In this document: positions 956-63,139 of the stretch, piece after piece
Layout of the letters: each line of letters opens with the position of its first letter
How positions within the stretch are numbered: position 1 is the stretch's first letter
IMG/VR virus record: IMGVR_UViG_3300045988_108377
Location: 25,214 to 89,213 of that record
Length of the DNA: 64,000 nucleotides
Strand: one strand, 5' to 3'
From: a virus
Notes under the pieces: model-generated
Databases searched by the model: none
Seen by the model: the letters and a program-made list of their open reading frames with translations, nothing else
Told to the model about the DNA's origin: nothing
Translations under genes and position numbers: made by a program

Positions 956-1707
956 TATTCTTCCTCCTCTGAATTTTCGTTATTGTCAGCTTCGTACTCA
1001 ATTCCAAGTAGATATGAGAGGAAACCATCACCGCTTCCAAAATTCTGCTCACAATAATTTGTAAGAGCATTATCGAGCATTTTGTACTCTTCATCTGTGA
1101 TGGTTACTTCGATATATCCGCACTTGAATGACTTGGAACGAACAACGGTTGTATCTACTTCTGCATCGTTAATCTTATTCTCGTCGTAATCATACAGATT
1201 CCAAGGCACAGAACCTACATATTCCTCTATATCACTACGGTCATACTCCTTTTTGAGAACTTCCACATCGTCCTCTCCATAATGAAGGTTGTCTTTGGCA
1301 AGAAACTCCTTTTCTTCCTCAGGTGTCATGTCATCTGCTATCTTTGCCGGCACGACAGGATTGTCCTTCCATTTGTTCCAAAAGGACTTCAACTCGTTCT
1401 GTTTCTCCTCGGGAGCGAGACGATACTTAGACTGGTTTTCCAGATATTCCTCAATCTCAGCATCTTCCATGTTGAGAATATTCAAGAGAACTTGGAGACG
1501 CTGATTGCCACCGAGAGCCACCTTGTCCTTATTTAAGATGATAGGGCGGAGCTCTAACATCTTAGGAAATACAAGAAGGCTCTCAGTGAGCTTGCCCATC
1601 ATGAACTCACTGATTGTTCGTGGATTCTCAGGGTTCACTTTCAATTGTGTTACTTTTATTTTCTTTTTCGTTGCCATATTATTAATCTTTAATTGCGATG
1701 ATTCCAC
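955..1707 (-). CDS. ParB/Srx-fold protein, paralog 3
   Basis: 250 aa. LKVNPENPRTIS, VALGGNQRLQVL, EKEFLAKDNLHYG. 26-nt overlap with the CmoA-like gene upstream. Confidence 0.8.
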   Translation of the reverse strand: MESSQLKINNMATKKKIKVTQLKVNPENPRTISEFMMGKLTESLLVFPKMLELRPIILNKDKVALGGNQRLQVLLNILNMEDAEIEEYLENQSKYRLAPEEKQNELKSFWNKWKDNPVVPAKIADDMTPEEEKEFLAKDNLHYGEDDVEVLKKEYDRSDIEEYVGSVPWNLYDYDENKINDAEVDTTVVRSKSFKCGYIEVTITDEEYKMLDNALTNYCEQNFGSGDGFLSYLLGIEYEADNNENSEEEE

Positions 1708-2443
1708 AAAAATTCAGGTGCTTCCAGAAGGTATCAATCTTTCGAAAACCTGCCATCTTTAACATACTGATGTTCATTTCTTCGGTAAGAGGGCAGAGCA
1801 CACCTTCCAGGGACTTACGCTTGCCAGCTATCTGTTCTTCCGTATATTGGTTCTCTCGCTTCATGTCGTAATAGATTGAAGAGAAGAGTTCACCAATCTC
1901 GGCTGAGTTGCCGAGTACTTTTTCCACCAAGATGAAGGCACCGCCATCGTTTAGGCTGTTATAAACACTCTCTATGATTCCTTGGCGATACTCTATTGGT
2001 ATAAACTGCAAGGTGAGGCATGAGAGAATGACAGAGCAACCACCACTAAAACTAAGGTAACCAATTGGGTGCTTAGCGAGGTCTAAACCCATGACACGAA
2101 CATAACCTTCTGAAATCTGTTGTTTGTAGTGTTCACGACATTTTGCAAGCATCGGCTCGCTAACATCATAAAGATAGGAGATAACTTCTTTCGAATGGTT
2201 AGCGATAATGCCTTCTGCCGACAGACCATTGGCGCAACCTAAGTCCACGAACCGAGTGTTTGGCTTGATAAAATGCTCTGCAACATTATCCACCAACTTT
2301 CGCATGACAGAGTAGTCTGGTATGGAGCGTTCCAACATATCCGTAAAAACGTCGGCTACGTTTTGGTCAAAATCCCAACTACCGGACAGATTTCTTATGT
2401 CGTCTCGTTTCTTTGCTTCTATATTATTGTTTTGCTGTGCCAT
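1682..2443 (-). CDS. cmoA: CmoA-like carboxy-S-adenosylmethionine synthase (class I SAM-MTase fold)
   Basis: 253 aa, collinear with E. coli CmoA as I recall it. WDFDQNVADVFTDMLERSIPDYS (Ec [23 protein letters not shown]); FVDLGCANG (Ec VYDLGCSLG); LTLQFIP (Ec FTLQFLE); GGAFILVEK (Ec GGALVLSEK); YTEEQIAGKRKSLEGVL (Ec YSELEISQKRSMLENVM); LNFCGIIAIK (Ec FNFGSLVALK). Confidence 0.75.
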   Translation of the reverse strand: MAQQNNNIEAKKRDDIRNLSGSWDFDQNVADVFTDMLERSIPDYSVMRKLVDNVAEHFIKPNTRFVDLGCANGLSAEGIIANHSKEVISYLYDVSEPMLAKCREHYKQQISEGYVRVMGLDLAKHPIGYLSFSGGCSVILSCLTLQFIPIEYRQGIIESVYNSLNDGGAFILVEKVLGNSAEIGELFSSIYYDMKRENQYTEEQIAGKRKSLEGVLCPLTEEMNISMLKMAGFRKIDTFWKHLNFCGIIAIKD

Positions 2444-5464: not shown

Positions 5465-5585
5465 AATCTTGAATGTTTAAAGTGAATGTTATTTGTTTAT
5501 TATTTACACTACAAAGATAGGTATTTTTCATCAAATATGCAAGTAAATGACAGATTAATTTTATCAGAAACGAAAGATTTTTATG
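5465..5585 (-). promoter_or_regulatory. Early promoter+leader cassette, copy A
   Basis: -7 box complement at 5512-5519 (TATCTTTG). Conserved leader ...TAAATAATAAACAAATAACATTCACTTTAAACATTCAAGATTATG. Confidence 0.7.
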
Positions 5586-6965: not shown

Positions 6966-8588
6966 TTACTTCTGTGTCTTGAGCGTTTCGATGTATTTTT
7001 CCATTTCAGCTGTTTTCTTGGCGCATACATCCATCGCTTTTTGGGTAATCTCTCCAAGATCGTTCGGGAATTGCTTCTCCATTAACATGCCGAGCATTCC
7101 TGCCAAGTCATGTGAGTAACACACAGACCTCTCTGATAGAATCGCCTTGATAAACTCTCGTTTGATAGAATTGCGGTTCTTCTCGATGATAGCAACGTTC
7201 TTTTTGAATGAGGTTTCTGTGTTCTCCCATTCCATACCGATTTCTTTCTTGAAGGCCTGTGGAACAAACTTCATGAGGACAGCATGGAATATCTTTGTCT
7301 CGTCTGCTGACAATGGAGTGTTGAGTTTTGAGTACTCGCTCTTGGCTAAAGTCTCACGGTAGCCTTCGGTAATTTCCTGTCTGGCTTGCTCCTTGTAGCG
7401 TTGAATCATTGTCTTGCTCTCGCTAATTTTAGCCTTTTTGTCGATGGCAGTCTTTATCTCTTCTTCTGAGGCTCCTTTTGGTGCCATGAAAGAATACTTA
7501 ATTTCTCCAGAAAGTTTGCCACTGAAACATACCTCATAAACCTTTTCTGTTGTACCATCTGCCAAGTTGCTATCAAAGACCGCCTTTGCCTTGTCGTAGT
7601 TATCCTTGCGAACTCTGTAGTTTTCCTCATCAGAGAACTTTGTCTTGTCTGGCTCTACTAAAGGGTACACGTAGCTTCGCTTGGTATAATCCTTCAATTC
7701 GATACCGGCATCATGCGCTGCCTTGATGATGTCTTCGCAGCCGTCACCCTTGTAGATACATGGCAGACCGCTCCGCTTTGCCTCACGGAAGATGAACTCT
7801 TGGGTTTTCTTATTGAAACATGATGGGTTCATGCAGCGGTCACGGCCCTCGTTGTATTCCTCAGGCTTGTTCTTTGTGTTGAGAGGACAGCCCTCACAGT
7901 TCTTGCCACATGAGAAACTTTCGTCGAGCAACGAAAAACGTGCAGTATCAAGATACTTCATCACGCACTCATCAATCCATTCGTGAAGTACGTCCATAGG
8001 AAGAATCTTTCTCGTCCAACGTTCAATACACTCTGGTGTGAACTTCTCCATGTAGAGGGTTTCTTGTTGTCCCTTTGTGAGCTTGCAAATATCCAGAAGG
8101 TGGACAAGGTAAAGCGTTCCATTTCGCATCAGGTCAATATAACCTTGTGTGATGTTAGAGAGATTGATTCGGCTGATAACGTATGAGGAAGACTTACCAA
8201 GCATTTTGGCAATTTCCTTCACCTTCATGGTTTTGTCTTTCGTGAGCTTCGAGAATGCGGCTGCTTCCTCAATAGGGTCTACGTCTTTTCGTTGTAAGTT
8301 CTCGATAATCATGGCTGCAAACGCTTGCTTGTCGTCGAGATCCGTGCGCACGATGGCTTGAATTTCTTCCATTCCTGCGAGCAATGATGCTCGGTATCTG
8401 CGCTCTCCGCATACGATTTCATATTTCTTACCACTCTCTTTTGGAGCCTTACGGATGGTGATAGGCTGTATCAGACCGTTCTCCTTGATGTTATCAGCTA
8501 ATTCCTTAAGGCTTTCCTGGTCGAAAGTCTTACGTGGGTTCAACGAACTTGGGCAAATGTCTGCCAACGAAATAGTCTTTACTTGCAT
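6966..8588 (-). CDS. parB: ParB/Spo0J-family protein with long C-terminal extension
   Basis: 540 aa. LNPRKTFDQESLKELADNIKENGLIQPITIRK, IVCGERRYRASLLAG (GERRxRA box II), IIENLQRKDV, HTH VKEIAKMLGKSSSYVISRI. Cys cluster CGKNCEGCP...RCMNPSC. No parA seen. Confidence 0.85.
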   Translation of the reverse strand: MQVKTISLADICPSSLNPRKTFDQESLKELADNIKENGLIQPITIRKAPKESGKKYEIVCGERRYRASLLAGMEEIQAIVRTDLDDKQAFAAMIIENLQRKDVDPIEEAAAFSKLTKDKTMKVKEIAKMLGKSSSYVISRINLSNITQGYIDLMRNGTLYLVHLLDICKLTKGQQETLYMEKFTPECIERWTRKILPMDVLHEWIDECVMKYLDTARFSLLDESFSCGKNCEGCPLNTKNKPEEYNEGRDRCMNPSCFNKKTQEFIFREAKRSGLPCIYKGDGCEDIIKAAHDAGIELKDYTKRSYVYPLVEPDKTKFSDEENYRVRKDNYDKAKAVFDSNLADGTTEKVYEVCFSGKLSGEIKYSFMAPKGASEEEIKTAIDKKAKISESKTMIQRYKEQARQEITEGYRETLAKSEYSKLNTPLSADETKIFHAVLMKFVPQAFKKEIGMEWENTETSFKKNVAIIEKNRNSIKREFIKAILSERSVCYSHDLAGMLGMLMEKQFPNDLGEITQKAMDVCAKKTAEMEKYIETLKTQK

Positions 8589-12002: not shown

Positions 12003-12115
12003 AATCTTGAAAGTTTAAAGTATTATTGTTTATTATTTACAATACAAAGATACAAACAATTTATCAAATACGCAAGTTTTTAAGCAATTATTTTATCAAA
12101 ATTTGAAGTTTTTAC
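12003..12115 (-). promoter_or_regulatory. Early promoter+leader cassette, copy F
   Basis: -7 box complement 12045-12052. Confidence 0.7.
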
Positions 12116-12123
12116 ATAAGAAA

Positions 12124-12155
12124 ATACCCTCGTCCAATCATTTTGGCGAGGGTAT
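12124..12155 (-). terminator. Intrinsic terminator ending the lysis/SAM-cycle unit
   Basis: ATACCCTCG / CGAGGGTAT, a 9-bp stem, followed on the minus strand by TTTTCTTATG. Confidence 0.65.
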
Positions 12156-12184
12156 ATTACAAAACCTTAAAACTATGGAACATT

Positions 12185-12928
12185 TTATTTCAGGCTTTGC
12201 CTTCGATACTTACTGAATACCCAACGAGCTAAAACGCTCGCCAGTATGACAAGTGCAATCCCTAAAAAGGTGAGAGCGATGTAAAGTGTCTGCTTGGATT
12301 CGGACACGGATTGTTTCTTGTCGGTTGAACGTTTTGTTTCTTTTCTCTTGTTCGTGGTCGCAGACGATGAGCTTTCGGAATTTGTATTGTTTTCCTCTTT
12401 CTCGTTGGCAACCACTGTTGAAGCTTTATTTGTCATTTCCTTTTGCGCAGACGATGTTGAGGCTCCACGCTTCTCTATCTTCGTCTGCCTGATGGTCTTA
12501 CTTACCTTTGGCTTGGCATCCTTGGCAGTATCGCTTGTGTCGTAGATGGTTGTTTCAGTAATAGTGACGGTCTCACTATTCTCTGAAGACTCATTCTTTT
12601 GCTCTGTGGTCGTGCTGACGGAATCGGTTGCGGACTTAGCCTTGTCTGACGATGTGGTGGAGTTAGTTTGCTCCGACGTATCTATTTGGGTCTGTTCCGT
12701 CTCGTTCTCGTTGACCTGCTCTGAGGACATTTGCTTGCTACTTCCACAAGATACAAGAATGATGATTGTGAACCATGCTATGCAGGAAAGCACAAATACG
12801 GATAGCACACCATGGTAACCTCCAAGAAAGCTCATAATGTTATGCGTTCCGAAACGTGATGCTCCGGACTCCTGGCTACTTCGCTCCATACGTAGGGCTT
12901 TGAATAACTTGTTTATGACTTTTTCCAT
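12185..12928 (-). CDS. Ser/Thr/Asn/Glu-rich membrane or lipoprotein-like protein
   Basis: 247 aa. N-terminal hydrophobic stretch ending in the lipobox-like LVSCGSS. ~150-aa low-complexity S/T/E/N/K region. C-terminal TM LYIALTFLGIALVILASVLA. Confidence 0.65.
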   Translation of the reverse strand: MEKVINKLFKALRMERSSQESGASRFGTHNIMSFLGGYHGVLSVFVLSCIAWFTIIILVSCGSSKQMSSEQVNENETEQTQIDTSEQTNSTTSSDKAKSATDSVSTTTEQKNESSENSETVTITETTIYDTSDTAKDAKPKVSKTIRQTKIEKRGASTSSAQKEMTNKASTVVANEKEENNTNSESSSSATTNKRKETKRSTDKKQSVSESKQTLYIALTFLGIALVILASVLARWVFSKYRRQSLK

Positions 12929-12939
12929 GATGATGTAAT

Positions 12940-13416
12940 TTAATATGGGTAACTCAAATTCTCTGCCTTGATGTCAGACAGAAAGTCCACAAACTCGTTT
13001 GCTGTTGACTTCGCTTGCTTTAGATCGTGTAAGGAATAGTTGCCACATTCCTTTGGTGAACTGCCTGGTATCACACCTTCATAGTCAGCAATGACTATGA
13101 ACATATCCCTAATAAGGTCTATCACTTGCAAACTATCGTAGTCGCCATTGAGAATGAGGTAGAAACCTGTGAGGCATCCCATAGGTCCGAAATAAACGAC
13201 CTTATCCTTCCATTTGCTGTCGTTGCGTAGGATTGTCGCTCCGATGTGTTCGATGGTGTGAGCGCACTCTGGAGTTAACATGTCGTAGTTCGGCTTCTTG
13301 ATACGAATATCAATAGTTGTGATGGTCTCACCCATGGAAGTAACATCTTTGCGAGAAACATAGATTCCACGGTCTAACTTCGTGTGGTCCACTTTAAAAC
13401 TTGCAATTTTACTCAT
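12940..13416 (-). CDS. luxS: S-ribosylhomocysteine lyase LuxS
   Basis: 158 aa. SFKVDHTKL, HTIEHI (metal His pair), GPMGCLTGFYL, ECGNYSLHDLKQAK match B. subtilis LuxS strings. ATGA overlap with mtnN. Confidence 0.9.
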   Translation of the reverse strand: MSKIASFKVDHTKLDRGIYVSRKDVTSMGETITTIDIRIKKPNYDMLTPECAHTIEHIGATILRNDSKWKDKVVYFGPMGCLTGFYLILNGDYDSLQVIDLIRDMFIVIADYEGVIPGSSPKECGNYSLHDLKQAKSTANEFVDFLSDIKAENLSYPY

Positions 13417-14105
13417 ACCAATTCCTCCAAGATTTTCTTTGTTTTGTCAAACGACCATTTTGCTACGTATTTCCAAAAATTCTCATATTGCTCTTCTTCA
13501 CAATTATCACTTATGATTCTGATGGCCACGAACGGAACCTTATAGCGGTAGCAGGTCTGTGCGATACTGCAACTCTCCATGTCTACAACGGAAGCCAATG
13601 GATATGTTGCTTTAAGTTTAGCCTTTATTACCGGGTCGACAATGAACTGGTCGCCACTGATAACACCAGCTATTCTTATGTTGTGTCCGAGTATTTTTCC
13701 AATACGAGCACATAAGTCACCTTCGGTGTTGATGCCAACCTCCAAAGGTGTGAATGTGCTTGGCATTCCTTGTACTTGTCCCTTGACAAGTTCTTTTCCA
13801 CAGAACACATCATGATAATGATACCATACACCCATGATAGTCTCACCCGAATGTAATTCTTCGTCCAGTGAGCCTGCTACTCCGGTAGATAGTATAAAGT
13901 CTGGTTCGTAGAGGGTAATCATTTCAGCAGCTCCCAAAGCAGAGTTGACCTTGCCTATTCCGCACTGCTGTATGACCACTTCATTCTTGCCGACATTACC
14001 GATCAAATAGTCAAATACTCTGCCATGTTCGGCTTGTCCTTCTGAAATGAATCCTTTTAGCAGCTCCATTTCCTTAGACATAGCTACTAATATTCCTATC
14101 TTCAT
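13413..14105 (-). CDS. mtnN: 5'-methylthioadenosine/S-adenosylhomocysteine nucleosidase (MtnN/Pfs)
   Basis: 230 aa. GIGKVNSALGAAEMI, STGVAGSL, VVDMESCSIAQ, VAIRIISD. ATGA overlap with metK. Confidence 0.88.
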   Translation of the reverse strand: MKIGILVAMSKEMELLKGFISEGQAEHGRVFDYLIGNVGKNEVVIQQCGIGKVNSALGAAEMITLYEPDFILSTGVAGSLDEELHSGETIMGVWYHYHDVFCGKELVKGQVQGMPSTFTPLEVGINTEGDLCARIGKILGHNIRIAGVISGDQFIVDPVIKAKLKATYPLASVVDMESCSIAQTCYRYKVPFVAIRIISDNCEEEQYENFWKYVAKWSFDKTKKILEELV

Positions 14106-15379
14106 AAGCCAAAAGCCTCTTTGATGTAATCAACAGAATCAAGCTTTTCCCATGTAAAAAGCTCAACTTCAATACTATGACCTTCGATTTTCTTGCGTTT
14201 CTTGCAAGGAATTCTGCCCATGTGCCCATAAGCAGCAGTTTCTTCATAGATAGGCTGATTAAGTTTCAACTTCTCAACGATTGCTCTTGGACGCATGTCG
14301 AAATTAGAAGCAATCCATTCTGTAACACCTTCGTCAGTCATTTCTACGTGTGAAGTACCATAGGTGTCAACACAGATACTTACTGGCTCTGCCATACCGA
14401 TAGCGTAGGAAATCTGAATGAGCATCTTATCGGAAACACCTGCAGCAACCATATTCTTCGCGATATAGCGAGCCATATAGGCTGCTGAACGGTCTACCTT
14501 ACTGCTATCTTTACCTGAGAAGGCACCTCCTCCATGCGCTCCAGCACCTCCGTATGTATCTACGATAATCTTACGACCTGTGAGACCTGTATCTCCATGA
14601 GGACCACCAATTACGAACTTGCCAGTCGGATTCACAAGCAACTTGAATCCCTTGTCAAACATCTTGACAACATTGTCGTCAGCAATCTGTTCCTTAACTT
14701 CTTGAAGAACGTAGTTCTCAACATCGTATGCTATCTGTTTCTGCATTTCTGCATCGGCTTCATCTTGCGACATCGTTTTCGATGGCTTGATAAAGTCCTC
14801 GTGCTGAGTTGAGACAACAATGGTGTCAATGCCGAAAGGTTTGCTGTCTTTGTATTCGACGGTTACTTGACTCTTCGAATCCGGACGCAAATATTTCATG
14901 CCACGCCCATTCTTTCTAATGAAAGCAAGTTCCTTGACAATCTTTGTGGCGATGTAGTGGGAGAGAGGCATGAATGTTTCAGTCTCGTTGGTTGCGTAAC
15001 CGAACATCATACCCTGGTCGCCGGCACCTTGCTCATCTTTTGACTGCCGGATAACACCCCTGTCGATGTCTGCGCTCTGCTCATGCAAAAGATTGATGAT
15101 ACTACAACTCTCGAAGTCAAAGTTGTCACCATATTCCGTGTAGCCAATGCGCTTGATGGTCTTACGTACAACCTTAGACACATCTACATGAGCGGTTGAT
15201 TTTACCTCACCAGCGAGAACTACCTGGTTGGTAGTAACCAAAGTTTCGCAAGCTACATGAGCATCAGCATCCTTTGCTATATAAGCGTCAAGAATAGCAT
15301 CGGAAATCTGGTCTGCAACCTTGTCAGGGTGTCCTTCTGATACGGATTCTGATGTAAAAAGTTTCTTTTCTTCTATCAT
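14102..15379 (-). CDS. metK: S-adenosylmethionine synthetase MetK
   Basis: 425 aa. FTSESVSEGHPDKVADQISDAILDA, GAGDQGMMFGYA, GGGAFSGKD. Confidence 0.95.
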   Translation of the reverse strand: MIEEKKLFTSESVSEGHPDKVADQISDAILDAYIAKDADAHVACETLVTTNQVVLAGEVKSTAHVDVSKVVRKTIKRIGYTEYGDNFDFESCSIINLLHEQSADIDRGVIRQSKDEQGAGDQGMMFGYATNETETFMPLSHYIATKIVKELAFIRKNGRGMKYLRPDSKSQVTVEYKDSKPFGIDTIVVSTQHEDFIKPSKTMSQDEADAEMQKQIAYDVENYVLQEVKEQIADDNVVKMFDKGFKLLVNPTGKFVIGGPHGDTGLTGRKIIVDTYGGAGAHGGGAFSGKDSSKVDRSAAYMARYIAKNMVAAGVSDKMLIQISYAIGMAEPVSICVDTYGTSHVEMTDEGVTEWIASNFDMRPRAIVEKLKLNQPIYEETAAYGHMGRIPCKKRKKIEGHSIEVELFTWEKLDSVDYIKEAFGL

Positions 15380-15392
15380 AATATACTGATTT

Positions 15393-15956
15393 TTATGCGA
15401 TTACTTTTCCGTTGTCGGCAATAAGCTTTCCATATTGAATGTTCTTGACTCGTCTAAGCCATCCGTTGAGATTAACCTCTTGCGACGGGTCATTTTTCAC
15501 TATTTGATGAAAATAAGCTATGCGTTTTACTTTTAAAGCGTCAAAAAGCACCCACTGACCTTTCCTGTAATTGTTGATGGCTGAAATCGTAGCAGGTCCC
15601 ATGACTCCATCTTGCTTTGTGCCGACGCAACTTTGAATATATCTCACGGCTCGGCTTACTCCGCTGTTGTAGGCAAAGTCTACCAATAGGTTTGCTACGC
15701 TCTGGTTCTTTATATGGTCACCCCAACAAGCATCCCAATAATTGAGTTTAAAGACTCTGTTGTAGTCGTCTTCCGTCAATAGCTTGATGTCCTCAGCTGT
15801 AATAGCTCTATCGCCATTCTTGTCATAACCAACCTTTTTCCACGTTGCAAGTGTAATGCCGTATTTTGTCGGTCCACCTCTATCAGACCTATGGTTGGTG
15901 TACTTGTTAGACTCAAAGCTAAGAACAAACTTTGATAATTGTCTTGAATCTGCCAT
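15393..15956 (-). CDS. Endolysin (GH108-like lysozyme + PG_binding_3-like domain)
   Basis: 187 aa. FESNKYTNHRSDRGGPTKYGIT (GH108 N-terminal signature). C-terminal NGWLRRV. Confidence 0.8.
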   Translation of the reverse strand: MADSRQLSKFVLSFESNKYTNHRSDRGGPTKYGITLATWKKVGYDKNGDRAITAEDIKLLTEDDYNRVFKLNYWDACWGDHIKNQSVANLLVDFAYNSGVSRAVRYIQSCVGTKQDGVMGPATISAINNYRKGQWVLFDALKVKRIAYFHQIVKNDPSQEVNLNGWLRRVKNIQYGKLIADNGKVIA

Positions 15957-16240
15957 TATTCATCTGTTTTAAATTCTTGTTTACGTTCTCCTCGTTCTCC
16001 AATGGTCTTTGTCAGACCTGCAGAGACAAATAGGGTAGAGATACTGCCAACGTATGCACTGATACCCATGAGGTCTGTCTTGATCGTCCCATAAGTGATA
16101 ACTTCCCAAATAAGGATAAATACTACAGACAGCAACATCAGGCAACCTATAAGCGTAACAGATACCAAGAAGAATGCCTTACTTGAATGTCCGCTGTTTA
16201 CCTTTATGAGTTTAGTGAAATAATCCGCTATCTTTTTCAT
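15956..16240 (-). CDS. Holin-like membrane protein
   Basis: 94 aa, two TM segments and a charged C-terminus, immediately upstream of the endolysin. Confidence 0.5.
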   Translation of the reverse strand: MKKIADYFTKLIKVNSGHSSKAFFLVSVTLIGCLMLLSVVFILIWEVITYGTIKTDLMGISAYVGSISTLFVSAGLTKTIGERGERKQEFKTDE

Positions 16241-16698
16241 ATCTCTTCATTTTCTCCATCGGTTCGGTCTATGTATTGGTTGTTTTCCATTTCAACCCTC
16301 CTGATAAGCTCTTCTCGCTTTCTGGGAGGCTTTCTTTTGGGGCAGCCGTTTACTTCACACTTATTCCAATCTAACTCTGCATTGAGCATCTGCAAATCGT
16401 GGTTCTTACTTTCGAGTCCGCTAATCGTATCTCGTAAGATGTTAATCTTGTCGTATAAAGAATCTATCTTGCCATCCTTAACCTTGATTTCTTCTTCCTT
16501 ATTCCGTACATCTTCATCACGTTTCTCGCAAAGTTTCCTCCAACCATCGGCTGAGGTGGCTATAGCCTTACCTTCCTCTTGTGAAGCCTCGGCTGCTGCT
16601 TTACGTTTACGAATACTAAAAAATAATGCACCACTCAATATTGGAATAACGCCTGTATTTATGATGGTTATGATTTCTACAATGCTCGATATTGACAT
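16237..16698 (-). CDS. N-terminal TM + coiled-coil protein (lysis-associated, spanin/holin-like)
   Basis: 153 aa. TM IITIINTGVIPILSGALFF, then coiled coil. ATGA overlap with the holin-like gene. Confidence 0.5.
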   Translation of the reverse strand: MSISSIVEIITIINTGVIPILSGALFFSIRKRKAAAEASQEEGKAIATSADGWRKLCEKRDEDVRNKEEEIKVKDGKIDSLYDKINILRDTISGLESKNHDLQMLNAELDWNKCEVNGCPKRKPPRKREELIRRVEMENNQYIDRTDGENEEI

Positions 16699-16714
16699 AT
16701 TCTTCTTTTTGCCA

Positions 16715-16748
16715 CAAAGTTACTTTTATTCTATGCTAAAGTAACAAA
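16715..16748 (-). promoter_or_regulatory. Promoter of the lysis/SAM-cycle unit
   Basis: -7 box complement 16715-16722 (TAACTTTG). TTTG complement 16745-16748. 22-nt spacer. Confidence 0.5.
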
Positions 16749-16749
16749 A

Positions 16750-16795
16750 AAGGGGACTAACTTACTGCATCATGCCTTGCAGTGTTAGTCCCTTT
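16750..16795 (-). terminator. Strong intrinsic terminator after dut
   Basis: GGGACTAAC / GTTAGTCCC outer stem plus ACTGCA / TGCAGT inner stem. TTTTTTG follows on the minus strand. Confidence 0.7.
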
Positions 16796-26073: not shown

Positions 26074-27435
26074 TTATGTACCACACCAAATATCCTTTAA
26101 CCGTTCAACTTCTTGTTTAAGTCCATTCTTTGCTATCTCATTGATTTTTTCTTTTAACAGCTGAGGCTCAAGCCGGTGAATTTCTTCACTCAATTCCTCA
26201 AGAGTCATTTGCGGTTTCATTATGTAGTCTTTGAGTTTCGCTTTCTCTGTCCTATCAAGGAGTTTGCCGACAATATCATCTTTCAGATAGTATTTATCTC
26301 CAGCTTCATTTTGAAGAATATCGTCAATAACGATTCCTCTATCTTTCGGTTGAGGAATATCCGACTTCTTGGTTGGCGGTTCAAAAGGATCGTCGTCAAA
26401 ATCAAACAAGTTCGTCTTACCGGTGTCTTTTACTCTGATGTTCGTCCAATAGATACGCTTGCGCTGCTGGGCAGATACCAAAGCAGAATTGATGTGAACA
26501 CCACGAATACCGATAGCATGAGACAGACAACGCTCCCATTTGTCAAGCATTTCTACGTTTTCGAGGAAGAAGAGTATATTTTGGTTATACTTGCGTAATT
26601 CTGTGAGAACACGCATATACTCCCAAAATAGATACGACTGGCCTTCAAACTCAAAACCTTGTGCTTTTAGTTCCAAGTACCGGTCAAGAGTGTAAATCTC
26701 CTCTCCATGACTTGTTGCTGCGCCTTTCAGCTTACCGCTCATAGAAAAGCCCTGGCATGGTGAACCACCGATAAGAATGTCAGGAATACCATATTGCCGT
26801 ACCATTTCGTCCACATTTAACTCTGTGACACTACCTATCTGAATAGTATTCGGGAAATTGTGCATTGTGTTTGCGATAGCATGCTTGTCTATCTCTGACG
26901 CAAGGTAGGTAGACACATTGGCACCAATACCATTGAGAGCCATCTGACCGCCGGATATTCCGTCAAACAACGACAATACTTTCATGTCTTTCTTTATCTC
27001 TTCGGGGATAAACTGAAAGATGTGCTTGATAGTCTCTATGTTCCATCCGTTACCAATACCATGGTACTGCTGTGTTTCGGAAGAAACAAACTCATAGTCG
27101 TGTGGAATTGTCTGCAACTTCGCACATTCTGATGGTGTCAGTCTACGTATGAAAGAAACAAAGGTGTGGCCGTTTATTTTAATCTCATAGCCTTGCTTGT
27201 CCTCCGGCATACGTTTCCTTATCTCTTCAAGCTGTCTTTTCCGAATGTTTCTGATGGCTTGTGATGCTATTTCTTCTTCATTACGCATATTCTCAAATAT
27301 TTGTAAAATGGCGGCTTTGTCACCACGTTTTCCTATACTTACGATGTGCTCAGTAGATAACGATCGGCACTTTTCTTTTCCACCTTTTATTATAAGGTGT
27401 GCTTGCGTACTAGGATAAATGACCGCTTGCCTCAT
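26074..27435 (-). CDS. DNA (cytosine-5)-methyltransferase, circularly permuted motif order
   Basis: 453 aa. Order in the ORF: IX RRLTPSECAKLQTIPHDYEF, X GIGNGWNIETIKHIF, then I LSLFDGISGG, IV GGSPCQGFS, VI FFLENV, VIII SAQQRKRIYWTN. Confidence 0.85.
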   Translation of the reverse strand: MRQAVIYPSTQAHLIIKGGKEKCRSLSTEHIVSIGKRGDKAAILQIFENMRNEEEIASQAIRNIRKRQLEEIRKRMPEDKQGYEIKINGHTFVSFIRRLTPSECAKLQTIPHDYEFVSSETQQYHGIGNGWNIETIKHIFQFIPEEIKKDMKVLSLFDGISGGQMALNGIGANVSTYLASEIDKHAIANTMHNFPNTIQIGSVTELNVDEMVRQYGIPDILIGGSPCQGFSMSGKLKGAATSHGEEIYTLDRYLELKAQGFEFEGQSYLFWEYMRVLTELRKYNQNILFFLENVEMLDKWERCLSHAIGIRGVHINSALVSAQQRKRIYWTNIRVKDTGKTNLFDFDDDPFEPPTKKSDIPQPKDRGIVIDDILQNEAGDKYYLKDDIVGKLLDRTEKAKLKDYIMKPQMTLEELSEEIHRLEPQLLKEKINEIAKNGLKQEVERLKDIWCGT

Positions 27436-31911: not shown

Positions 31912-31950
31912 CTTGCGAATGGCTCGTAACAAACCGAAAAGTTGTCGCAA

Positions 31951-33180
31951 ATGAATCTGAGAGTTGTCATACTTCCTGCTAAGGTCTTGACGGACGGAAG
32001 TCATAAAGTTAGAATTGCAATTTCACACAGAGGTAACACAAGATACTTTGTTACCAGATTTACCGTGCCATCGGAGAAAAACTTGGTTAATGGCAATGTC
32101 GTTGGAATACCGAATGCCGCATACATCAACAACCAAATCAGACTGAAACTAAATAAAATCTATAATGCCTTCGACTCCCTGGAGGAATCTGATTATTATA
32201 CGTGTTCTCAGTTGGTAACTATGATTGAGGAAAAGATTTCCGGCACCAAACCAATGACGCTTCATCAGCTTGGAGTGGAATATATCAAAGTGAGGCGTTC
32301 TGTGGTAGCTGATGGTACAGTCTATATATACGAGCGAGGAATGGCAGAAATTGACTCGTTCTTTGGCACAGACTTTATCCTTCCTAAACTTAAGGTTACT
32401 GATGTAAGTGCTTTCAAGGAATACTTGTCGAAAAAGCTTAATCCAACGACAACCAACTTAAGATTGCGTGTTCTAAACATGATTGTTACCTATGCTGTTA
32501 GGCACAATTATGTCAAGTATGATGTATCTCCGTTTACCGATGTGCCATTGCCTCACGGAAACGTTAGAAACTGCGCAATATCAATCGAACAATTACGTGT
32601 TGTAAGAGATATGGAGTTCTCAAATTCTCGTCTTGATGTTTGCCTTTCTTTTGTTAGAGACATCTTTATGCTTTCGTTCTATCTGTGTGGTATGAACTTA
32701 GCGGATATTCTCTCTATGGATTTACGTAAAGACTCTGTTTCGTTTGTCAGACAGAAGACTAAGAACAGAAAAACTGACGGGGTTAAGACTGAATTTACGA
32801 TTCAGCCCGAGGCGAGAAAAATCCTTGATAGATTACTTGACAAAGACGGAAATATTGTATTCAAAGGAAAGAAAATGAGATACGACCCTATATCATGTTT
32901 GTTCTCCCGTAACTTTTCTGAGATTGCAGTAAGATGCGGAATTGAAACTCAATTCATATTCTATTCGGCCCGCAAGACTTTTGCACAAATCGCAAATGAG
33001 CTTATGGTAAAAGACTCCATCATAGAATATTGTATAGGTGACACTGTTACTTCTAGTAAAAAGATAATTGGCTACTATATTTCTGTTAACCAACGTATGG
33101 CAGACAAGGCAATACGAAAAATTTTTGATGCCGTTGCCTCTGACAAAAGTATAGAAGAACTTGTTGAGGATGCCATATAA
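31951..33180 (+). CDS. int: Tyrosine recombinase / phage integrase
   Basis: Started at ATG 31951 (the track used TTG 31942). N-terminal arm-binding-like LRVVILPAKVLTDGSHKVRIAISHRGNTRYF. C-terminal boxes SARKTFAQ and IIGYYISV. Confidence 0.8.
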   Translation: MNLRVVILPAKVLTDGSHKVRIAISHRGNTRYFVTRFTVPSEKNLVNGNVVGIPNAAYINNQIRLKLNKIYNAFDSLEESDYYTCSQLVTMIEEKISGTKPMTLHQLGVEYIKVRRSVVADGTVYIYERGMAEIDSFFGTDFILPKLKVTDVSAFKEYLSKKLNPTTTNLRLRVLNMIVTYAVRHNYVKYDVSPFTDVPLPHGNVRNCAISIEQLRVVRDMEFSNSRLDVCLSFVRDIFMLSFYLCGMNLADILSMDLRKDSVSFVRQKTKNRKTDGVKTEFTIQPEARKILDRLLDKDGNIVFKGKKMRYDPISCLFSRNFSEIAVRCGIETQFIFYSARKTFAQIANELMVKDSIIEYCIGDTVTSSKKIIGYYISVNQRMADKAIRKIFDAVASDKSIEELVEDAI

Positions 33181-33446: not shown

Positions 33447-34130
33447 TTAAAGTTTTCCTTTGTCATGATATGAATAATAGGTATTTACCTTACTACTGAT
33501 GATAACGTGATCCGAAAAGAAAAGGTTCATTACTTGACAAGCCTTTTGTATCTTCATAGTCAGTATATCGTCATTCTTGCTGGGCGTAGTGTTACAGCTT
33601 GGATGGTTGTGAACGAGTGCTATAATGGTAGCGTTACACATTATAGCCTCCTTGCATATCAGTCTTATATCTACAGTAGTTTCTGTATTGCCTCCAACAG
33701 AAATGCGTACTCTTTTGATTAGTTTGAAATTTTGGTCCATACATAAAACCCATGATTCTTCGTGGTCCAAGTCAAGGGTAAACGGACGCATATAGTTGTA
33801 TATAAATAAAGAACTTCCTAAGTCTGTAATATCTTCCGCTTCCTCTTTCATCAGCCTTCTTCCTATTTCAAAGGCAGCGAGCAGAGCTGCAGCCTTCTTT
33901 TCGCCAATACCTTTTACCTTTACAAGTTCATCAAATGTTTTCTTTTTCGCCAATTTGCGTAAGCTATGACTACCATCGAATAAATCACGGACAGGTTGGT
34001 TTGCCTCATTCATAATATCAATGCCGAGAACGGCTGCTATCAAATTCTCGTTGCTTACGTATTCCGTTCCATATCGCTCTATCATGGTTGCGGTAGTATC
34101 ATACCAACACTTCTTGCTATTGTCTCTCAT
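33447..34130 (-). CDS. radC: RadC-like JAB/MPN domain protein
   Basis: 227 aa. KGIGEKKAAALLAAFEIGRR (HhH), HNHPSCNTTPSKNDDILT (JAMM-like). Confidence 0.88.
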   Translation of the reverse strand: MRDNSKKCWYDTTATMIERYGTEYVSNENLIAAVLGIDIMNEANQPVRDLFDGSHSLRKLAKKKTFDELVKVKGIGEKKAAALLAAFEIGRRLMKEEAEDITDLGSSLFIYNYMRPFTLDLDHEESWVLCMDQNFKLIKRVRISVGGNTETTVDIRLICKEAIMCNATIIALVHNHPSCNTTPSKNDDILTMKIQKACQVMNLFFSDHVIISSKVNTYYSYHDKGKL

Positions 34131-57417: not shown

Positions 57418-57690
57418 TTAGGCTACCCAACTCATTAGTTCATTCTCATCGAAATCGTTCTCGGTTACACAACCTTCATTATTCCAACTTTCAACATTCA
57501 CAATATAGAGTTCCTTAGAGGTCTCTATAAAAGCACCTGTACCATTGAAGTAATCGGACTCACAATAGCCTTCTGTTTCCATCTTGCACTCTATAGCGAT
57601 AGTTTCGTTACCTTTATCGTATTCAATGTAATTAGAACCTTCAGAAATTTTTTCTGAAATTGCTCTGTAATCAATGCTGTTTAATTTCAT
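57418..57690 (-). CDS. Hypothetical early protein
   Basis: 90 aa. ATG abuts cassette copy L. Confidence 0.6.
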   Translation of the reverse strand: MKLNSIDYRAISEKISEGSNYIEYDKGNETIAIECKMETEGYCESDYFNGTGAFIETSKELYIVNVESWNNEGCVTENDFDENELMSWVA

Positions 57691-57800
57691 AATCTTGAAT
57701 GTTTAAAGTGAACATTGTTTGTTTATTATTTACATTACAAAGATAAGTGTTTTTTATCAAATACGCAAATAATTTGCAAGTTTTTTCTTCAAAAATGAAA
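57691..57800 (-). promoter_or_regulatory. Early promoter+leader cassette, copy L
   Basis: -7 box complement 57738-57745. Confidence 0.7.
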
Positions 57801-61741: not shown

Positions 61742-61768
61742 ACACTATTCCTTTTTATCTAACAAGAT

Positions 61769-62737
61769 TTATAATTTTATGTCTTGCTCTTGCTTTGTCA
61801 TAACTTTGCAGCCAAGATGCTTATTAAAATACTTTAAGTCCTTTCCGTTAATTTTTCTATCTGCAACAAATCGGTTATGCTGCAAAATACGAGACGATGC
61901 TATAGTTCGGGAACATGCGATCTGCCTGGCAGATAGGCTTTGATGGTATTCTTCCAATGTTTTGTCTATCTCATAACCAACAAAGTTTCTACCACTGTCT
62001 AATGCGGCTTGCATTGTCGTTCCAAGACCAAGGAATGGGTCGAGCACCGTGTCTCCCTTGCACGAATACATGTTGATAAGACGGTAAGGTATTTCGTAAG
62101 GGAAGGCTGCGCTTCTTGTTCGAGATTTTCCGTCAGCCATCTTCTGCTTTACACCCTTCACATTCCAGGTGTCAGAGAACCACGTATTTCTCTCTTCCCA
62201 GAAGAATGCGCTTTGTCTTCGAATTTTCTTCTCCTCCTCGGTCTTAAACTTTCGCCTTTTGCCCTTTCTGAATATTAGTATGTATTCGTGTTCGAGGGTG
62301 ATATAAGCACCACATGGAAGCATACCACTTCCCATAAACTTATTTGGGGCATTTGTTTGCTTCCTCCAAATGACGCATGGAAGTTCCGTAAAACCAAGAC
62401 CTCTGCAATATAGCGATATTTTCGCATGGTTATTGAACAGCTGGAAGTTTCCATTGATAGTTCTTGTAGCATCTCCTATATTGATACAAAGGAAACCTCC
62501 TTCTGAAAGAACCCTGTAACACTCCCTCCATATATTGTTGAGTATTCCGTGCATTAAATCGAAAGATACGGATGGATTATCTGCAAGGTTGCACGCAATG
62601 GCTTTATTTTGCATTGCAAATATATCGTCCCACATTTCAACCATCGGATATGGAGGCGATGTTACTACAATATTGATGCTTTCATCTGCCAACTCTCCCA
62701 TATTGCATGCCGACTTATAATAGATATTTCTTTTCAT
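61769..62737 (-). CDS. Beta-class DNA amino-methyltransferase (N4-cytosine or N6-adenine; SPPY type)
   Basis: 322 aa. Motif IV VVTSPPY precedes motif I VLDPFLGLGTT. HEYILIFRKG, AAFPYEIPYRLI. Confidence 0.85.
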   Translation of the reverse strand: MKRNIYYKSACNMGELADESINIVVTSPPYPMVEMWDDIFAMQNKAIACNLADNPSVSFDLMHGILNNIWRECYRVLSEGGFLCINIGDATRTINGNFQLFNNHAKISLYCRGLGFTELPCVIWRKQTNAPNKFMGSGMLPCGAYITLEHEYILIFRKGKRRKFKTEEEKKIRRQSAFFWEERNTWFSDTWNVKGVKQKMADGKSRTRSAAFPYEIPYRLINMYSCKGDTVLDPFLGLGTTMQAALDSGRNFVGYEIDKTLEEYHQSLSARQIACSRTIASSRILQHNRFVADRKINGKDLKYFNKHLGCKVMTKQEQDIKL

Positions 62738-62740
62738 ACA

Positions 62741-63139
62741 CTACACGAATTTAATGACAAAAAACTCTGTATCAAGCCACTTATCAGGGCACATACCCTT
62801 CTTAGGCCTACCGATGCTGATGCTTTCAATCTCCTTTTCTACCTTTGGACTATCGTCATAGTAGCCGTTCTTGAAGAGAACGTGAGTGAATGGTACGAAC
62901 TTCATTGTACCATTATTAAGTTTCTCCTTGATGGTATCGATGTCTATAAGCATCTCAAATGTCTTACCGATATGAAGCTTATTGTACTTATCGAAATCTT
63001 TGAATTCCTCATCCTTGACAAGGAGAAGTCGACTCATCCAAAAGTCTTTAATTATCCGATACTCTTCATTCTTTTCGCCCGATACTATCATATCGAACCA
63101 TTCCTTGCTGACGGTGAGGGTCAAAACTTTCTTTTCCAT
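62741..63139 (-). CDS. ASCH domain protein
   Basis: 132 aa. LTLTVSKEWFDMIVSGEKNEEYR is the ASCH N-terminal signature. 3 nt from the MTase gene. Confidence 0.65.
   Translation of the reverse strand: MEKKVLTLTVSKEWFDMIVSGEKNEEYRIIKDFWMSRLLLVKDEEFKDFDKYNKLHIGKTFEMLIDIDTIKEKLNNGTMKFVPFTHVLFKNGYYDDSPKVEKEIESISIGRPKKGMCPDKWLDTEFFVIKFV

Follow-up and report, generated by a model that had tools for sequence, protein, structure and literature searches.

Genes for S-adenosylmethionine synthesis and S-adenosylhomocysteine clearance predicted to be nested within a phage lysis operon

The stretch of DNA analysed here, called the window throughout, comprises 64,000 nucleotides (nt) of the IMG/VR virus record IMGVR_UViG_3300045988_108377 (positions 25,214-89,213). 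Nearly all of its long open reading frames (ORFs) lie on the minus strand, and a block at 12124-16748 holds seven of them, which run from 16698 down to 12185 with ends that overlap or are separated by gaps of at most 13 nt throughout. In gene order, they encode a transmembrane (TM)/coiled-coil protein, a holin-like protein, a GH108 endolysin, the enzymes MetK, MtnN and LuxS, and a Ser/Thr-rich membrane protein:

16237-16698, minus strand: TM/coiled-coil protein of 153 amino acids (aa), first gene of a TM/coiled-coil-holin-GH108 module, with one hydrophobic segment at residues 2-29.
15956-16240, minus strand: holin-like membrane protein of 94 aa, with a hydrophobic core and a charged C-terminus, overlapping both of its neighbours.
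15393-15956, minus strand: endolysin with GH108 and PG_binding_3 domains (PF05838, 70 bits, and PF09374, 45 bits, both above the Pfam cut-offs; phrog_315 endolysin, 138 bits).
14102-15379, minus strand: MetK, a methionine adenosyltransferase (S-adenosylmethionine, SAM, synthetase) of the Bacteroidales type (TIGR01034, 498 bits against a cut-off of 309.4).
13413-14105, minus strand: MtnN (Pfs), a 5'-methylthioadenosine (MTA)/S-adenosylhomocysteine (SAH) nucleosidase (TIGR01704, 120.6 bits against a cut-off of 73.8).
12940-13416, minus strand: LuxS, an S-ribosylhomocysteine lyase (NF002604, 194.8 bits against a cut-off of 158; PF02664, 179 bits).
12185-12928, minus strand: Ser/Thr-rich protein of 247 aa, the last gene, with a lipobox LVSC (Cys61) and a C-terminal TM helix at about residues 211-240.

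Phage genes lie on both flanks of the block, namely those for a dUTPase, a helicase, a C5 cytosine DNA methyltransferase (MTase) and a head protease upstream and for a ParB protein downstream. The whole seven-gene block is common to six independent IMG/VR contigs (L001-L006, hereafter the six relatives, with LuxS identities of 79-98%), and their full synteny rules out both a chimeric assembly and a host flank. In addition, the GC content of the metK, mtnN and luxS genes, overall and at third codon positions (GC3), is like that of other phage genes, which also argues against a host-flank origin.

Three predicted transcription signals bound the block:

16715-16748, minus strand: candidate promoter of the Bacteroidetes type, with a -33 TTTG (16748-16745), a 22-nt spacer and the -7 box TAACTTTG (16722-16715).
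16746-16792, minus strand: terminator closing the upstream dUTPase unit (hairpin at 16753-16792 plus T-run; -22.1 kcal/mol, z = -5.1).
12118-12155, minus strand: intrinsic terminator ending the block (hairpin at 12124-12155 plus T-run; -18.6 kcal/mol, z = -5.9).

An original prediction, made from the window alone, had described these seven genes as bracketed by one promoter and one terminator and set among phage genes. This description holds, as the ORFs, the -7 box and both hairpins are conserved in the six relatives, and the junctions, read directly, are those that it gave: ATGA overlaps between the TM/coiled-coil and holin-like genes, between metK and mtnN and between mtnN and luxS, a TAATG with a 1-nt overlap between the holin-like and GH108 genes, and gaps of 13 nt (GH108/metK) and 11 nt (luxS/last gene), in neither of which folding finds a stable hairpin. 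The promoter and terminator calls are consensus-level predictions. The Bacteroidetes promoter pattern is over-represented in the window (17 matches against 3.9 +/- 2.2 expected), and the -7 box is identical in 6/6 relatives. The stem of the downstream terminator is retained in all six by compensatory changes, and that of the upstream terminator is kept in the relatives as well, with compensatory changes in L002 and L006. No second TTTG...TAnnTTTG match lies inside the block. Internal promoters were rejected, the single lone TAGCTTTG being located inside the GH108 gene, 535 nt upstream of metK, and internal terminators were likewise rejected, as weak 3-GC hairpins occur only at chance frequency. 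A sigma-70 scan was uninformative (21 sites against 19.3 expected). All of these signals fit a single transcription unit, and the seven genes are predicted to form one.

Judged from the alignments, MetK, MtnN and LuxS have intact catalytic residues and are under strong purifying selection. Their ratios of nonsynonymous to synonymous substitution rates (dN/dS), computed against the six relatives, fall between 0.05 and 0.13, similar to those of the GH108 endolysin and ParB; indeed, all seven genes of the unit are under purifying selection. MetK matches PF00438, PF02772 and PF02773 (its N-terminal, central and C-terminal domains), all above their cut-offs, aligns with solved MetKs over residues 5-394, and contains GHPDK, GAGDQG, GGGAFSGKD and DRS (compared with 3iml); its dN/dS is 0.06-0.09, and its nearest cellular relatives are Prevotella, Paraprevotella and Bacteroidales proteins at 64-69% identity. 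MtnN scores under the stricter NF004079 cut-off (152 versus 169) and keeps the residues that match M9, E12, F151, M173, E174, R193, S196 and D197 of the E. coli reference sequence, whose numbering matched. A Val occupies the position of E. coli S76, as it does in 98/105 cellular homologs of this subfamily; the substitution was rejected as a sign of inactivation, Val being the subfamily norm. MtnN has a dN/dS of 0.05-0.13 and an identity to cellular proteins of at most 46%. In LuxS, HTIEH, GPMGC and ECG align with the corresponding motifs of the B. subtilis enzyme (1j98), at H54, E57 and H58, C84 and C126, which comprise the metal ligands (HxxEH plus a Cys) and the catalytic Cys; the window LuxS has all of these, and its dN/dS is 0.05-0.07 and its identity to cellular proteins about 55-58%. 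By these measures the three genes are old and phage-maintained, neither recent host pick-ups nor assembly artefacts, because identity drops sharply from phage relatives to cellular proteins.

Of the four steps in the activated methyl cycle, MetK, MtnN and LuxS together provide three. SAH inhibits SAM-dependent MTases, and neither the MtnN nor the LuxS reaction is reversible; MtnN releases adenine, and it also cleaves MTA and 5'-deoxyadenosine. The gene families and intact catalytic strings reported by the original prediction are borne out, since curated cut-offs are passed and the strings align with the catalytic residues of solved structures. Its wording of a complete SAM arm fits three working-looking enzymes but overstates a set that covers three steps of four.

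A relative of the window's LuxS is encoded by 143 IMG/VR contigs, and outside the window clade (the window and its six relatives) the same slot is organized in several ways:

L224 and seven similar contigs: dUTPase, holin, MetK, endolysin, spanin-like protein.
L236: holin, MetK, MtnN, endolysin, spanin-like protein.
L010 and L223: holin, MetK, lipoprotein, LuxS, endolysin, spanin-like protein.
L238: holin, MetK, MtnN, LuxS, amidase, spanin-like protein.

The L224 holin matches Pfam Phage_holin_4_1 (46 bits), and the endolysins of these layouts are GH19-like or Amidase_2. Because the spanin-like gene follows the endolysin in these relatives and MetK stands between holin and endolysin, the SAM-cycle genes appear to be nested inside the lysis cassette rather than appended to it. 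In the window clade, by comparison, the TM/coiled-coil, holin-like and GH108 genes are upstream of metK, and no endolysin is left before the spanin-like gene. This suggests a swap of the lysis module, since the same three-gene module is also found in a clade without SAM-cycle genes.

MetK is present in every lineage of this lysis slot, and in 8 contigs it is there alone; the other sets seen are MetK plus MtnN, MetK plus LuxS, and all three, so that MtnN may be present where LuxS is absent and vice versa. As MetK is constant and MtnN and LuxS are variable across the relatives, a SAM-supply core with optional SAH clearance would fit best. A device for making autoinducer-2 (AI-2) fits poorly, because MtnN without LuxS yields no 4,5-dihydroxy-2,3-pentanedione (DPD), and LuxS without MtnN must depend on a host nucleosidase. 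The place that MtnN holds in other lineages, after MetK and before either LuxS or the endolysin, is taken in L010 (7276-7956), L223 (3131-3754) and L233 (3637-4347) by a conserved lipoprotein (207-236 aa) that matches no family.

The spanin-like gene of these layouts is the homolog of the window's last gene, the product of which had been described as lipoprotein-like. The lipobox is indeed there, a call made at motif level, but the protein has a C-terminal TM helix too, and it belongs with the lysis genes. An alignment-based search found 23 homologs. The lipobox Cys is kept in 23/23 (as [LF][ASTV][AS]C at Cys16-20 in homologs with a short N-terminus), the C-terminus is hydrophobic in 23/23 (19-residue Kyte-Doolittle maximum of 2.3-3.0), and the C-terminal tail AYWVF(T/S)KYR is conserved. 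The putative periplasmic part consists to about 55-60% of Ser, Thr, Glu, Lys, Asn, Gln and Asp and contains one conserved motif, ETT(I/W)YD. In Pfam, NCBIfam and PHROGs, the protein gave low-complexity noise only. Its gene evolves faster than the rest of the unit (dN/dS 0.24-0.31). In 17 related loci, all outside the window clade, a homolog directly follows the endolysin gene: in 15/17 it overlaps the stop of a GH19-like endolysin by 4 nt, and in the other two it begins 12 nt after an Amidase_2 endolysin. A hairpin terminator stands behind the homologous gene in L224 and L238 as well. In the window the gene is likewise last in its unit, but the genes for MetK, MtnN and LuxS stand between it and the endolysin.

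The definition given in a published spanin survey (PMC6139136) describes a unimolecular spanin as having a lipoylation signal at its N-terminus together with a transmembrane domain (TMD) at its C-terminus and as the product of the last gene of a lysis cassette. T1 gp11, as presented there (Kongari et al. 2018), shares with the window protein the lipoylation signal and the C-terminal TMD; its position as last lysis gene beside the endolysin is that of the homologs in the 17 related loci. The two have no sequence similarity, however; the periplasmic part of gp11 is described as beta-rich, whereas that of the window protein is of low complexity and rich in Ser, Thr, Glu and Lys. The window protein also differs in a 60-residue region before the lipobox Cys and in the three metabolic genes that separate it from the endolysin. 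Hence, the protein looks like a unimolecular spanin and is treated as a candidate; we call it spanin-like rather than a spanin because it has no similarity to T1 gp11 and its periplasmic part is of low complexity. The only Bacteroides phage covered by that survey is listed as spanin-less. That the Ser/Thr-rich protein founds the first family of unimolecular spanins of Bacteroidota phages is a tentative proposal, possible but somewhat short of probable.

As to the module at the front of the unit, the TM/coiled-coil protein matches phrog_32423 (unknown function), has a dN/dS of 0.03-0.05, ends in a coiled-coil-like tail and carries a conserved C-x4-GC...PPRKRE motif. It was rejected as an i-spanin, there being no embedded or adjacent ORF for a small lipoprotein; a RKRK stretch behind its TM helix, which suggests a cytoplasmic C-terminus, also counts against this role. 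The 94-aa protein has no Pfam, NCBIfam or PHROG match and so belongs to no described holin family; its size, hydrophobic core, charged C-terminus and position, always directly upstream of the GH108 endolysin in loci with the module, make it holin-like. The module recurs in a second phage clade (L087-L117, L123 and L130, on contigs of about 32-130 kb) at 41, 72 and 71% identity for its three proteins, e.g. at L097 6286-7567, with convergent genes after the endolysin. Between the window and L097 (6286-6714) the TM/coiled-coil protein retains W-N-(K/R)-C-x4-G-C-x3-PPRKRE at an overall identity of 41%. About 2.5 kb downstream, this second clade encodes a 197-aa protein (L097 10057-10650) in which a lipobox-like MMYGC, a coiled-coil central part and a TM helix at the C-terminus make up another spanin-like architecture; the protein shows no similarity to the Ser/Thr-rich one.

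Cellular genomes offer a likely source for two of the three enzymes. The mtnN gene is immediately upstream of luxS in the chromosomes of Segatella cerevisiae, a Prevotella sp., Bacteroidales metagenome-assembled genomes (MAGs), Maridesulfovibrio and other anaerobes, whereas MetK stands next to mtnN-luxS in phage-like loci only. The chromosomal pair has the same order as the phage pair, although identity to the chromosomal counterparts is no more than 40-43% for the phage MtnN and 57-58% for the phage LuxS. The mtnN-luxS pair was thus probably captured as one unit, with the host pair as its likely source. An ancestral MetK-MtnN-LuxS trio followed by differential loss was not upheld. Gain and loss are indistinguishable in neighbour-joining (NJ) trees because bootstrap support is low, the MetK-linked phage family being monophyletic in 118/200 replicates for LuxS and 4/200 for MtnN. 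An overlapping MtnN-LuxS pair with no MetK nearby is also found in about 70 human-gut phage contigs (L011-L080, mostly 40-86 kb; e.g. L014 7355-8462), where it closes a series of small genes and is directly followed by scaffold-like and capsid-like genes. The proteins of this pair are 31% (MtnN) and 54% (LuxS) identical to those of the window, and crude NJ trees place its LuxS away from the MetK-linked phage family.

These distributions bear on the possibility that LuxS is the point of the cassette, in which case a burst of DPD/AI-2, timed with lysis and released by it, would alter neighbouring cells or inform other phages. An intact LuxS under purifying selection, encoded within the predicted lysis transcript and with relatives on as many contigs as given above, is consistent with this proposal; its family is missing from PHROGs v4, and the literature searched contains no experimental study of a phage LuxS. 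AI-2 exits cells without lysis, however. LuxS is missing in sister lineages that keep MetK or MetK plus MtnN in the same slot, some lineages have LuxS without a phage MtnN, and the likely hosts already make DPD with their own adjacent mtnN-luxS pair. Moreover, no AI-2 receptor or Lsr gene was noted among the annotated ORFs, which cover part of the 64 kb. Broadcasting of AI-2 is therefore unlikely as the purpose of the cassette, and its stronger form, in which lysing cells emit a timed DPD/AI-2 pulse and gut Prevotella phages thereby report lysis to neighbouring bacteria or prophages, is very doubtful. The original prediction had suggested that LuxS could raise AI-2 output from infected cells; as a purpose, this is the weaker reading because LuxS and MtnN are dispensable in sister lineages, MetK is always kept, and hosts already have the mtnN-luxS pair.

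If SAM supply is the core of the device, consumers of SAM should be considered, and the window encodes three MTases:

26074-27435, minus strand: C5 cytosine DNA MTase, a SAM consumer (PF00145, E = 2.5e-36).
61769-62737, minus strand: N6/N4 DNA MTase, a SAM consumer (PF01555, E = 1.2e-41).
1682-2443, minus strand: class-I SAM MTase, the 'CmoA-like' gene (Methyltransf_12/25/11; phrog_4752 'tRNA methyltransferase', 237 bits).

The CmoA-like gene and the two DNA MTases that had been listed as part of the phage's methyl-donor economy are hence all found. The N6/N4 MTase is a discrete mobile cassette (61764-62746) that shares 92-98% nucleotide identity with more than 25 other viral contigs, the similarity stopping where the gene ends. 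In members of an unrelated, abundant phage group (L037, L043, L045, L062, L066 and L067), a 95-98% identical N6/N4 MTase protein is encoded 1.2-2.8 kb upstream of MtnN-LuxS. Furthermore, the gene after MetK-LuxS in the lineage of L007 and L137 encodes a protein of 471 aa that combines DAM-like-phage1 and GNAT-phage-like domains, as in Mom-like DNA modification. The window's MTases, this Mom-like gene and the N6/N4 MTase near MtnN-LuxS together tie the SAM-cycle genes to nucleic-acid modification.

The locus of the L007 lineage (L007 4388-10145, also L008, and L137 from a Prevotella MAG) has an 85-aa ORF between MetK and LuxS, and Prok-E2_D, ThiF (E1-like) and DUF488-N3a genes precede MetK; it may be a DNA hypermodification island. 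One can ask whether SAM is supplied for a use other than methylation, for instance as counter-defence against a host system that limits or consumes SAM or for a SAM-derived DNA hypermodification, with MtnN clearing MTA or 5'-deoxyadenosine. MetK by itself is the conserved element, MtnN cleaves both of these compounds, and in this one lineage MetK-LuxS lies beside the Mom-like Dam plus GNAT gene and the E1/E2-like and DUF488 genes, all of which would suit such a use. Against it, the window proteins that were scanned include no member of a radical-SAM or aminocarboxypropyl-transferase family, and we know of no host defence that depletes SAM. This idea is speculative, and we consider it highly unlikely.

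We favour a lysis operon whose nested SAM-cycle enzymes serve the phage's own MTases, and put the probability of this reading at about 0.5. In this scheme, the seven genes would be read from a single transcript, lysis proteins included, and thus during productive infection. MetK would raise the supply of SAM, and MtnN, then LuxS, would irreversibly clear SAH, the product inhibitor of MTases, so that the phage C5, N6/N4 and class-I enzymes could stay active during synthesis and packaging of progeny DNA. MetK would be the core of the device, MtnN and LuxS optional add-ons that supplement an existing host pathway, and DPD/AI-2, adenine and homocysteine by-products.

Some of these by-products are the products of interest in a different proposal, in which methionine is rerouted through homocysteine to cysteine or sulfide, with release of adenine, to feed phage protein and nucleotide synthesis. 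Release of adenine by MtnN and the dUTPase gene adjoining the block, a gene of nucleotide metabolism, are in keeping with it, and Kieft et al., in their 2021 preprint (bioRxiv 10.1101/2021.01.05.425418), class viral metK, mtnN and luxS as funnelling methionine towards homocysteine and sulfide. Such rerouting would cost one ATP per methionine, and its flux would be set by MTases because a methyl acceptor is required between MetK and MtnN. No downstream cystathionine or sulfide enzymes were seen among the annotated ORFs, and lineages with MetK only cannot run the pathway with phage genes. Organosulfur or nutrient rerouting is accordingly judged unlikely.

Several observations count against the scheme in which the enzymes support methylation. 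At the promoter, the -33 TTTG is found in the window only and is not conserved in the six relatives. The C5 MTase occurs in four of the six (90-95% identity; two contigs may be incomplete) and the N6/N4 MTase cassette was found in none of them, so the MTase set varies among close relatives. The second clade with the TM/coiled-coil-holin-GH108 module has no SAM-cycle genes beside it. No enzyme for the homocysteine-to-methionine step (MetH or MetE) turned up in the 64 kb, which leaves the cycle unclosed. The likely hosts already encode MetK, MtnN and LuxS, and a need for extra copies is assumed; finally, the sequence holds nothing that ties the enzymes to DNA methylation over other uses of SAM. 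The idea that the phage carries a methyl-donor economy of its own is hence upheld as far as gene identities, active sites, context and the presence of SAM users are concerned, and is weakened by the variable MTase set.

The phage itself, a gut phage, is probably temperate because it encodes an integrase:

31942-33180, plus strand: tyrosine integrase of the Bacteroidetes type (Arm-DNA-bind_5, Phage_int_SAM_5), the sole long plus-strand gene with a family match.

A RadC-like JAB protein (33447-34130, minus strand) adjoins it. With an integrase present, the three enzymes could be lysogenic-conversion morons, expressed in the prophage to the benefit of the lysogen's growth, biofilm formation or signalling. 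Lysis-gene neighbourhoods are common sites for morons, and in Streptococcus agalactiae a prophage metK alters aggregation and biofilm (PMC8223999). The layout of the unit points the other way. There is no promoter-like site in the 13-nt gap between the endolysin gene and metK, the lone -7-like box within GH108 being the nearest candidate, and the mapped promoter would express holin and endolysin as well; in relatives, MetK even lies between the two. Expression in lysogens from the mapped promoter is unlikely because the predicted transcript also carries holin and endolysin and the block shows no internal promoter. For the same reason, raised AI-2 output from lysogens, as had been proposed, is improbable, and the moron explanation as a whole is quite unlikely.

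The host is probably a Prevotella or Segatella. The nearest named cellular MetK is from Prevotella lacticifex (68% identity), the nearest named cellular MtnN is from a Prevotella sp., and elements of sister lineages reside in one Prevotella MAG and one Bacteroidaceae MAG. In a LuxS search of one genome per GTDB species, no genome holds a prophage of the window clade; the best matches, 60% (Prevotella RUG753) and 59% (Bacteroidaceae RGIG6784), are both from sister lineages. The host call is therefore an indirect one, as no GTDB representative genome holds the window clade. A nucleotide search with the block and the structural region gave no named relatives among GenBank phages, the short matches being to human faecal 'Bacteriophage sp.' contigs only, and the capsid-like protein of the window is 47% identical to that of Bacteroides phage BS-TP3. 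Among the other phage genes annotated in the window are those for a DnaD-like loader and an AAA_24 protein, and the window has no tRNA genes. The ParB-like protein (6966-8588) is 540 aa long; ParB_N and a helix-turn-helix are confined to residues 1-180, and the other 360 residues, which contain a CxxxCxxC motif, match phrog_18726 (unknown function) and nothing else.

Most other units of the phage appear to start in a different way from the lysis unit, as illustrated by the signal immediately downstream of it:

12045-12075, minus strand: phage-type promoter box opening the next unit (TTGCGTATTTGATAA-N9-TATCTTTG), conserved in relatives.

At least 12 copies of this box are found in the window, at the start of most other phage units (minus-strand 15-nt box starts at 5528, 6848, 8650, 9982, 11134, 12061, 17825, 21015, 35124, 54987, 57754 and 59119). 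The box recurs in L001-L006 and in L224, and the region of one copy (57687-57764) is 82% identical over 78 nt to Prevotella Lak megaphages. Five copies have a degenerate second box exactly 33 nt upstream (5561, 10015, 11167, 35157 and 59152), and this pairing suggests an operator for a phage regulator. The lysis unit does not have the repeated box, its promoter candidate being of another type, and it is therefore probably regulated differently from most phage units.

The gene content of the unit is known from earlier work. According to the preprint by Kieft et al. (10.1101/2021.01.05.425418), metK, mtnN, luxS, dcm, cysD and cysH make up nearly 97% of the organosulfur auxiliary metabolic genes (AMGs) of human-associated viral contigs; luxS co-occurs with mtnN and metK with dcm, dN/dS is below 1, functional residues are conserved, links to Bacteroidales and Prevotella are reported, and some AMGs are 'adjacent to lysis factors'. 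These are the same three enzymes on human gut viral contigs, and the pairing of metK with dcm is one more independent link to DNA modification. The text consulted is a catalogue of sulfur metabolism, however, and describes neither a nested three-gene operon between holin/endolysin and a spanin-like gene nor the contrast of an ever-present MetK with variable MtnN and LuxS nor the native mtnN-luxS pair of the hosts. A 2026 digester study also lists a phage LuxS as an AMG.

At the protein level, 138 GenBank phage records match MetK. Streptococcal 12/111phiA, Faecalibacterium phage FP_Brigit and Helicobacter prophages likewise carry a SAM synthetase, although theirs come from Firmicutes and Proteobacteria phages and are 40-50% identical to that of the window. 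In S. agalactiae 12/111phiA (PMC8223999), metK is accompanied by a toxin-antitoxin pair and an endonuclease and lies outside the lysis cassette, with no MtnN-LuxS partner. Among GenBank isolated phages there is no close LuxS; faecal contigs without annotation reach only about 50% identity. Phage T3 also manipulates the host SAM pool, by means of a SAM lyase (SAMase) linked, in bioRxiv 10.1101/2023.02.27.530186, to restriction-modification and BREX. T3 destroys SAM and inhibits MetK, thereby disarming host defence, whereas the window phage would add SAM synthesis and SAH removal.

Taken together, the gene content has precedents in Kieft et al. and in the streptococcal prophage metK, and the operon architecture is new: metabolic genes nested within the lysis cassette, a constant MetK core, the host mtnN-luxS pair as likely source, and a candidate spanin family of Bacteroidales phages. 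The last of these would offer a candidate for outer-membrane disruption in a group of phages about whose lysis systems little is known. Few metabolic genes of human gut viromes are as common as metK, mtnN and luxS, and their purpose has been guessed to be sulfur metabolism, methylation or quorum sensing. The comparison made here, with MetK constant, MtnN and LuxS optional and modification genes nearby, points to SAM/SAH balance and virion methylation (anti-restriction) over AI-2. The clade is abundant, its homologous protein clusters holding hundreds of member sequences, and for this reason any effect on host methylation or signalling could matter in the ecology of Prevotella-rich microbiomes.

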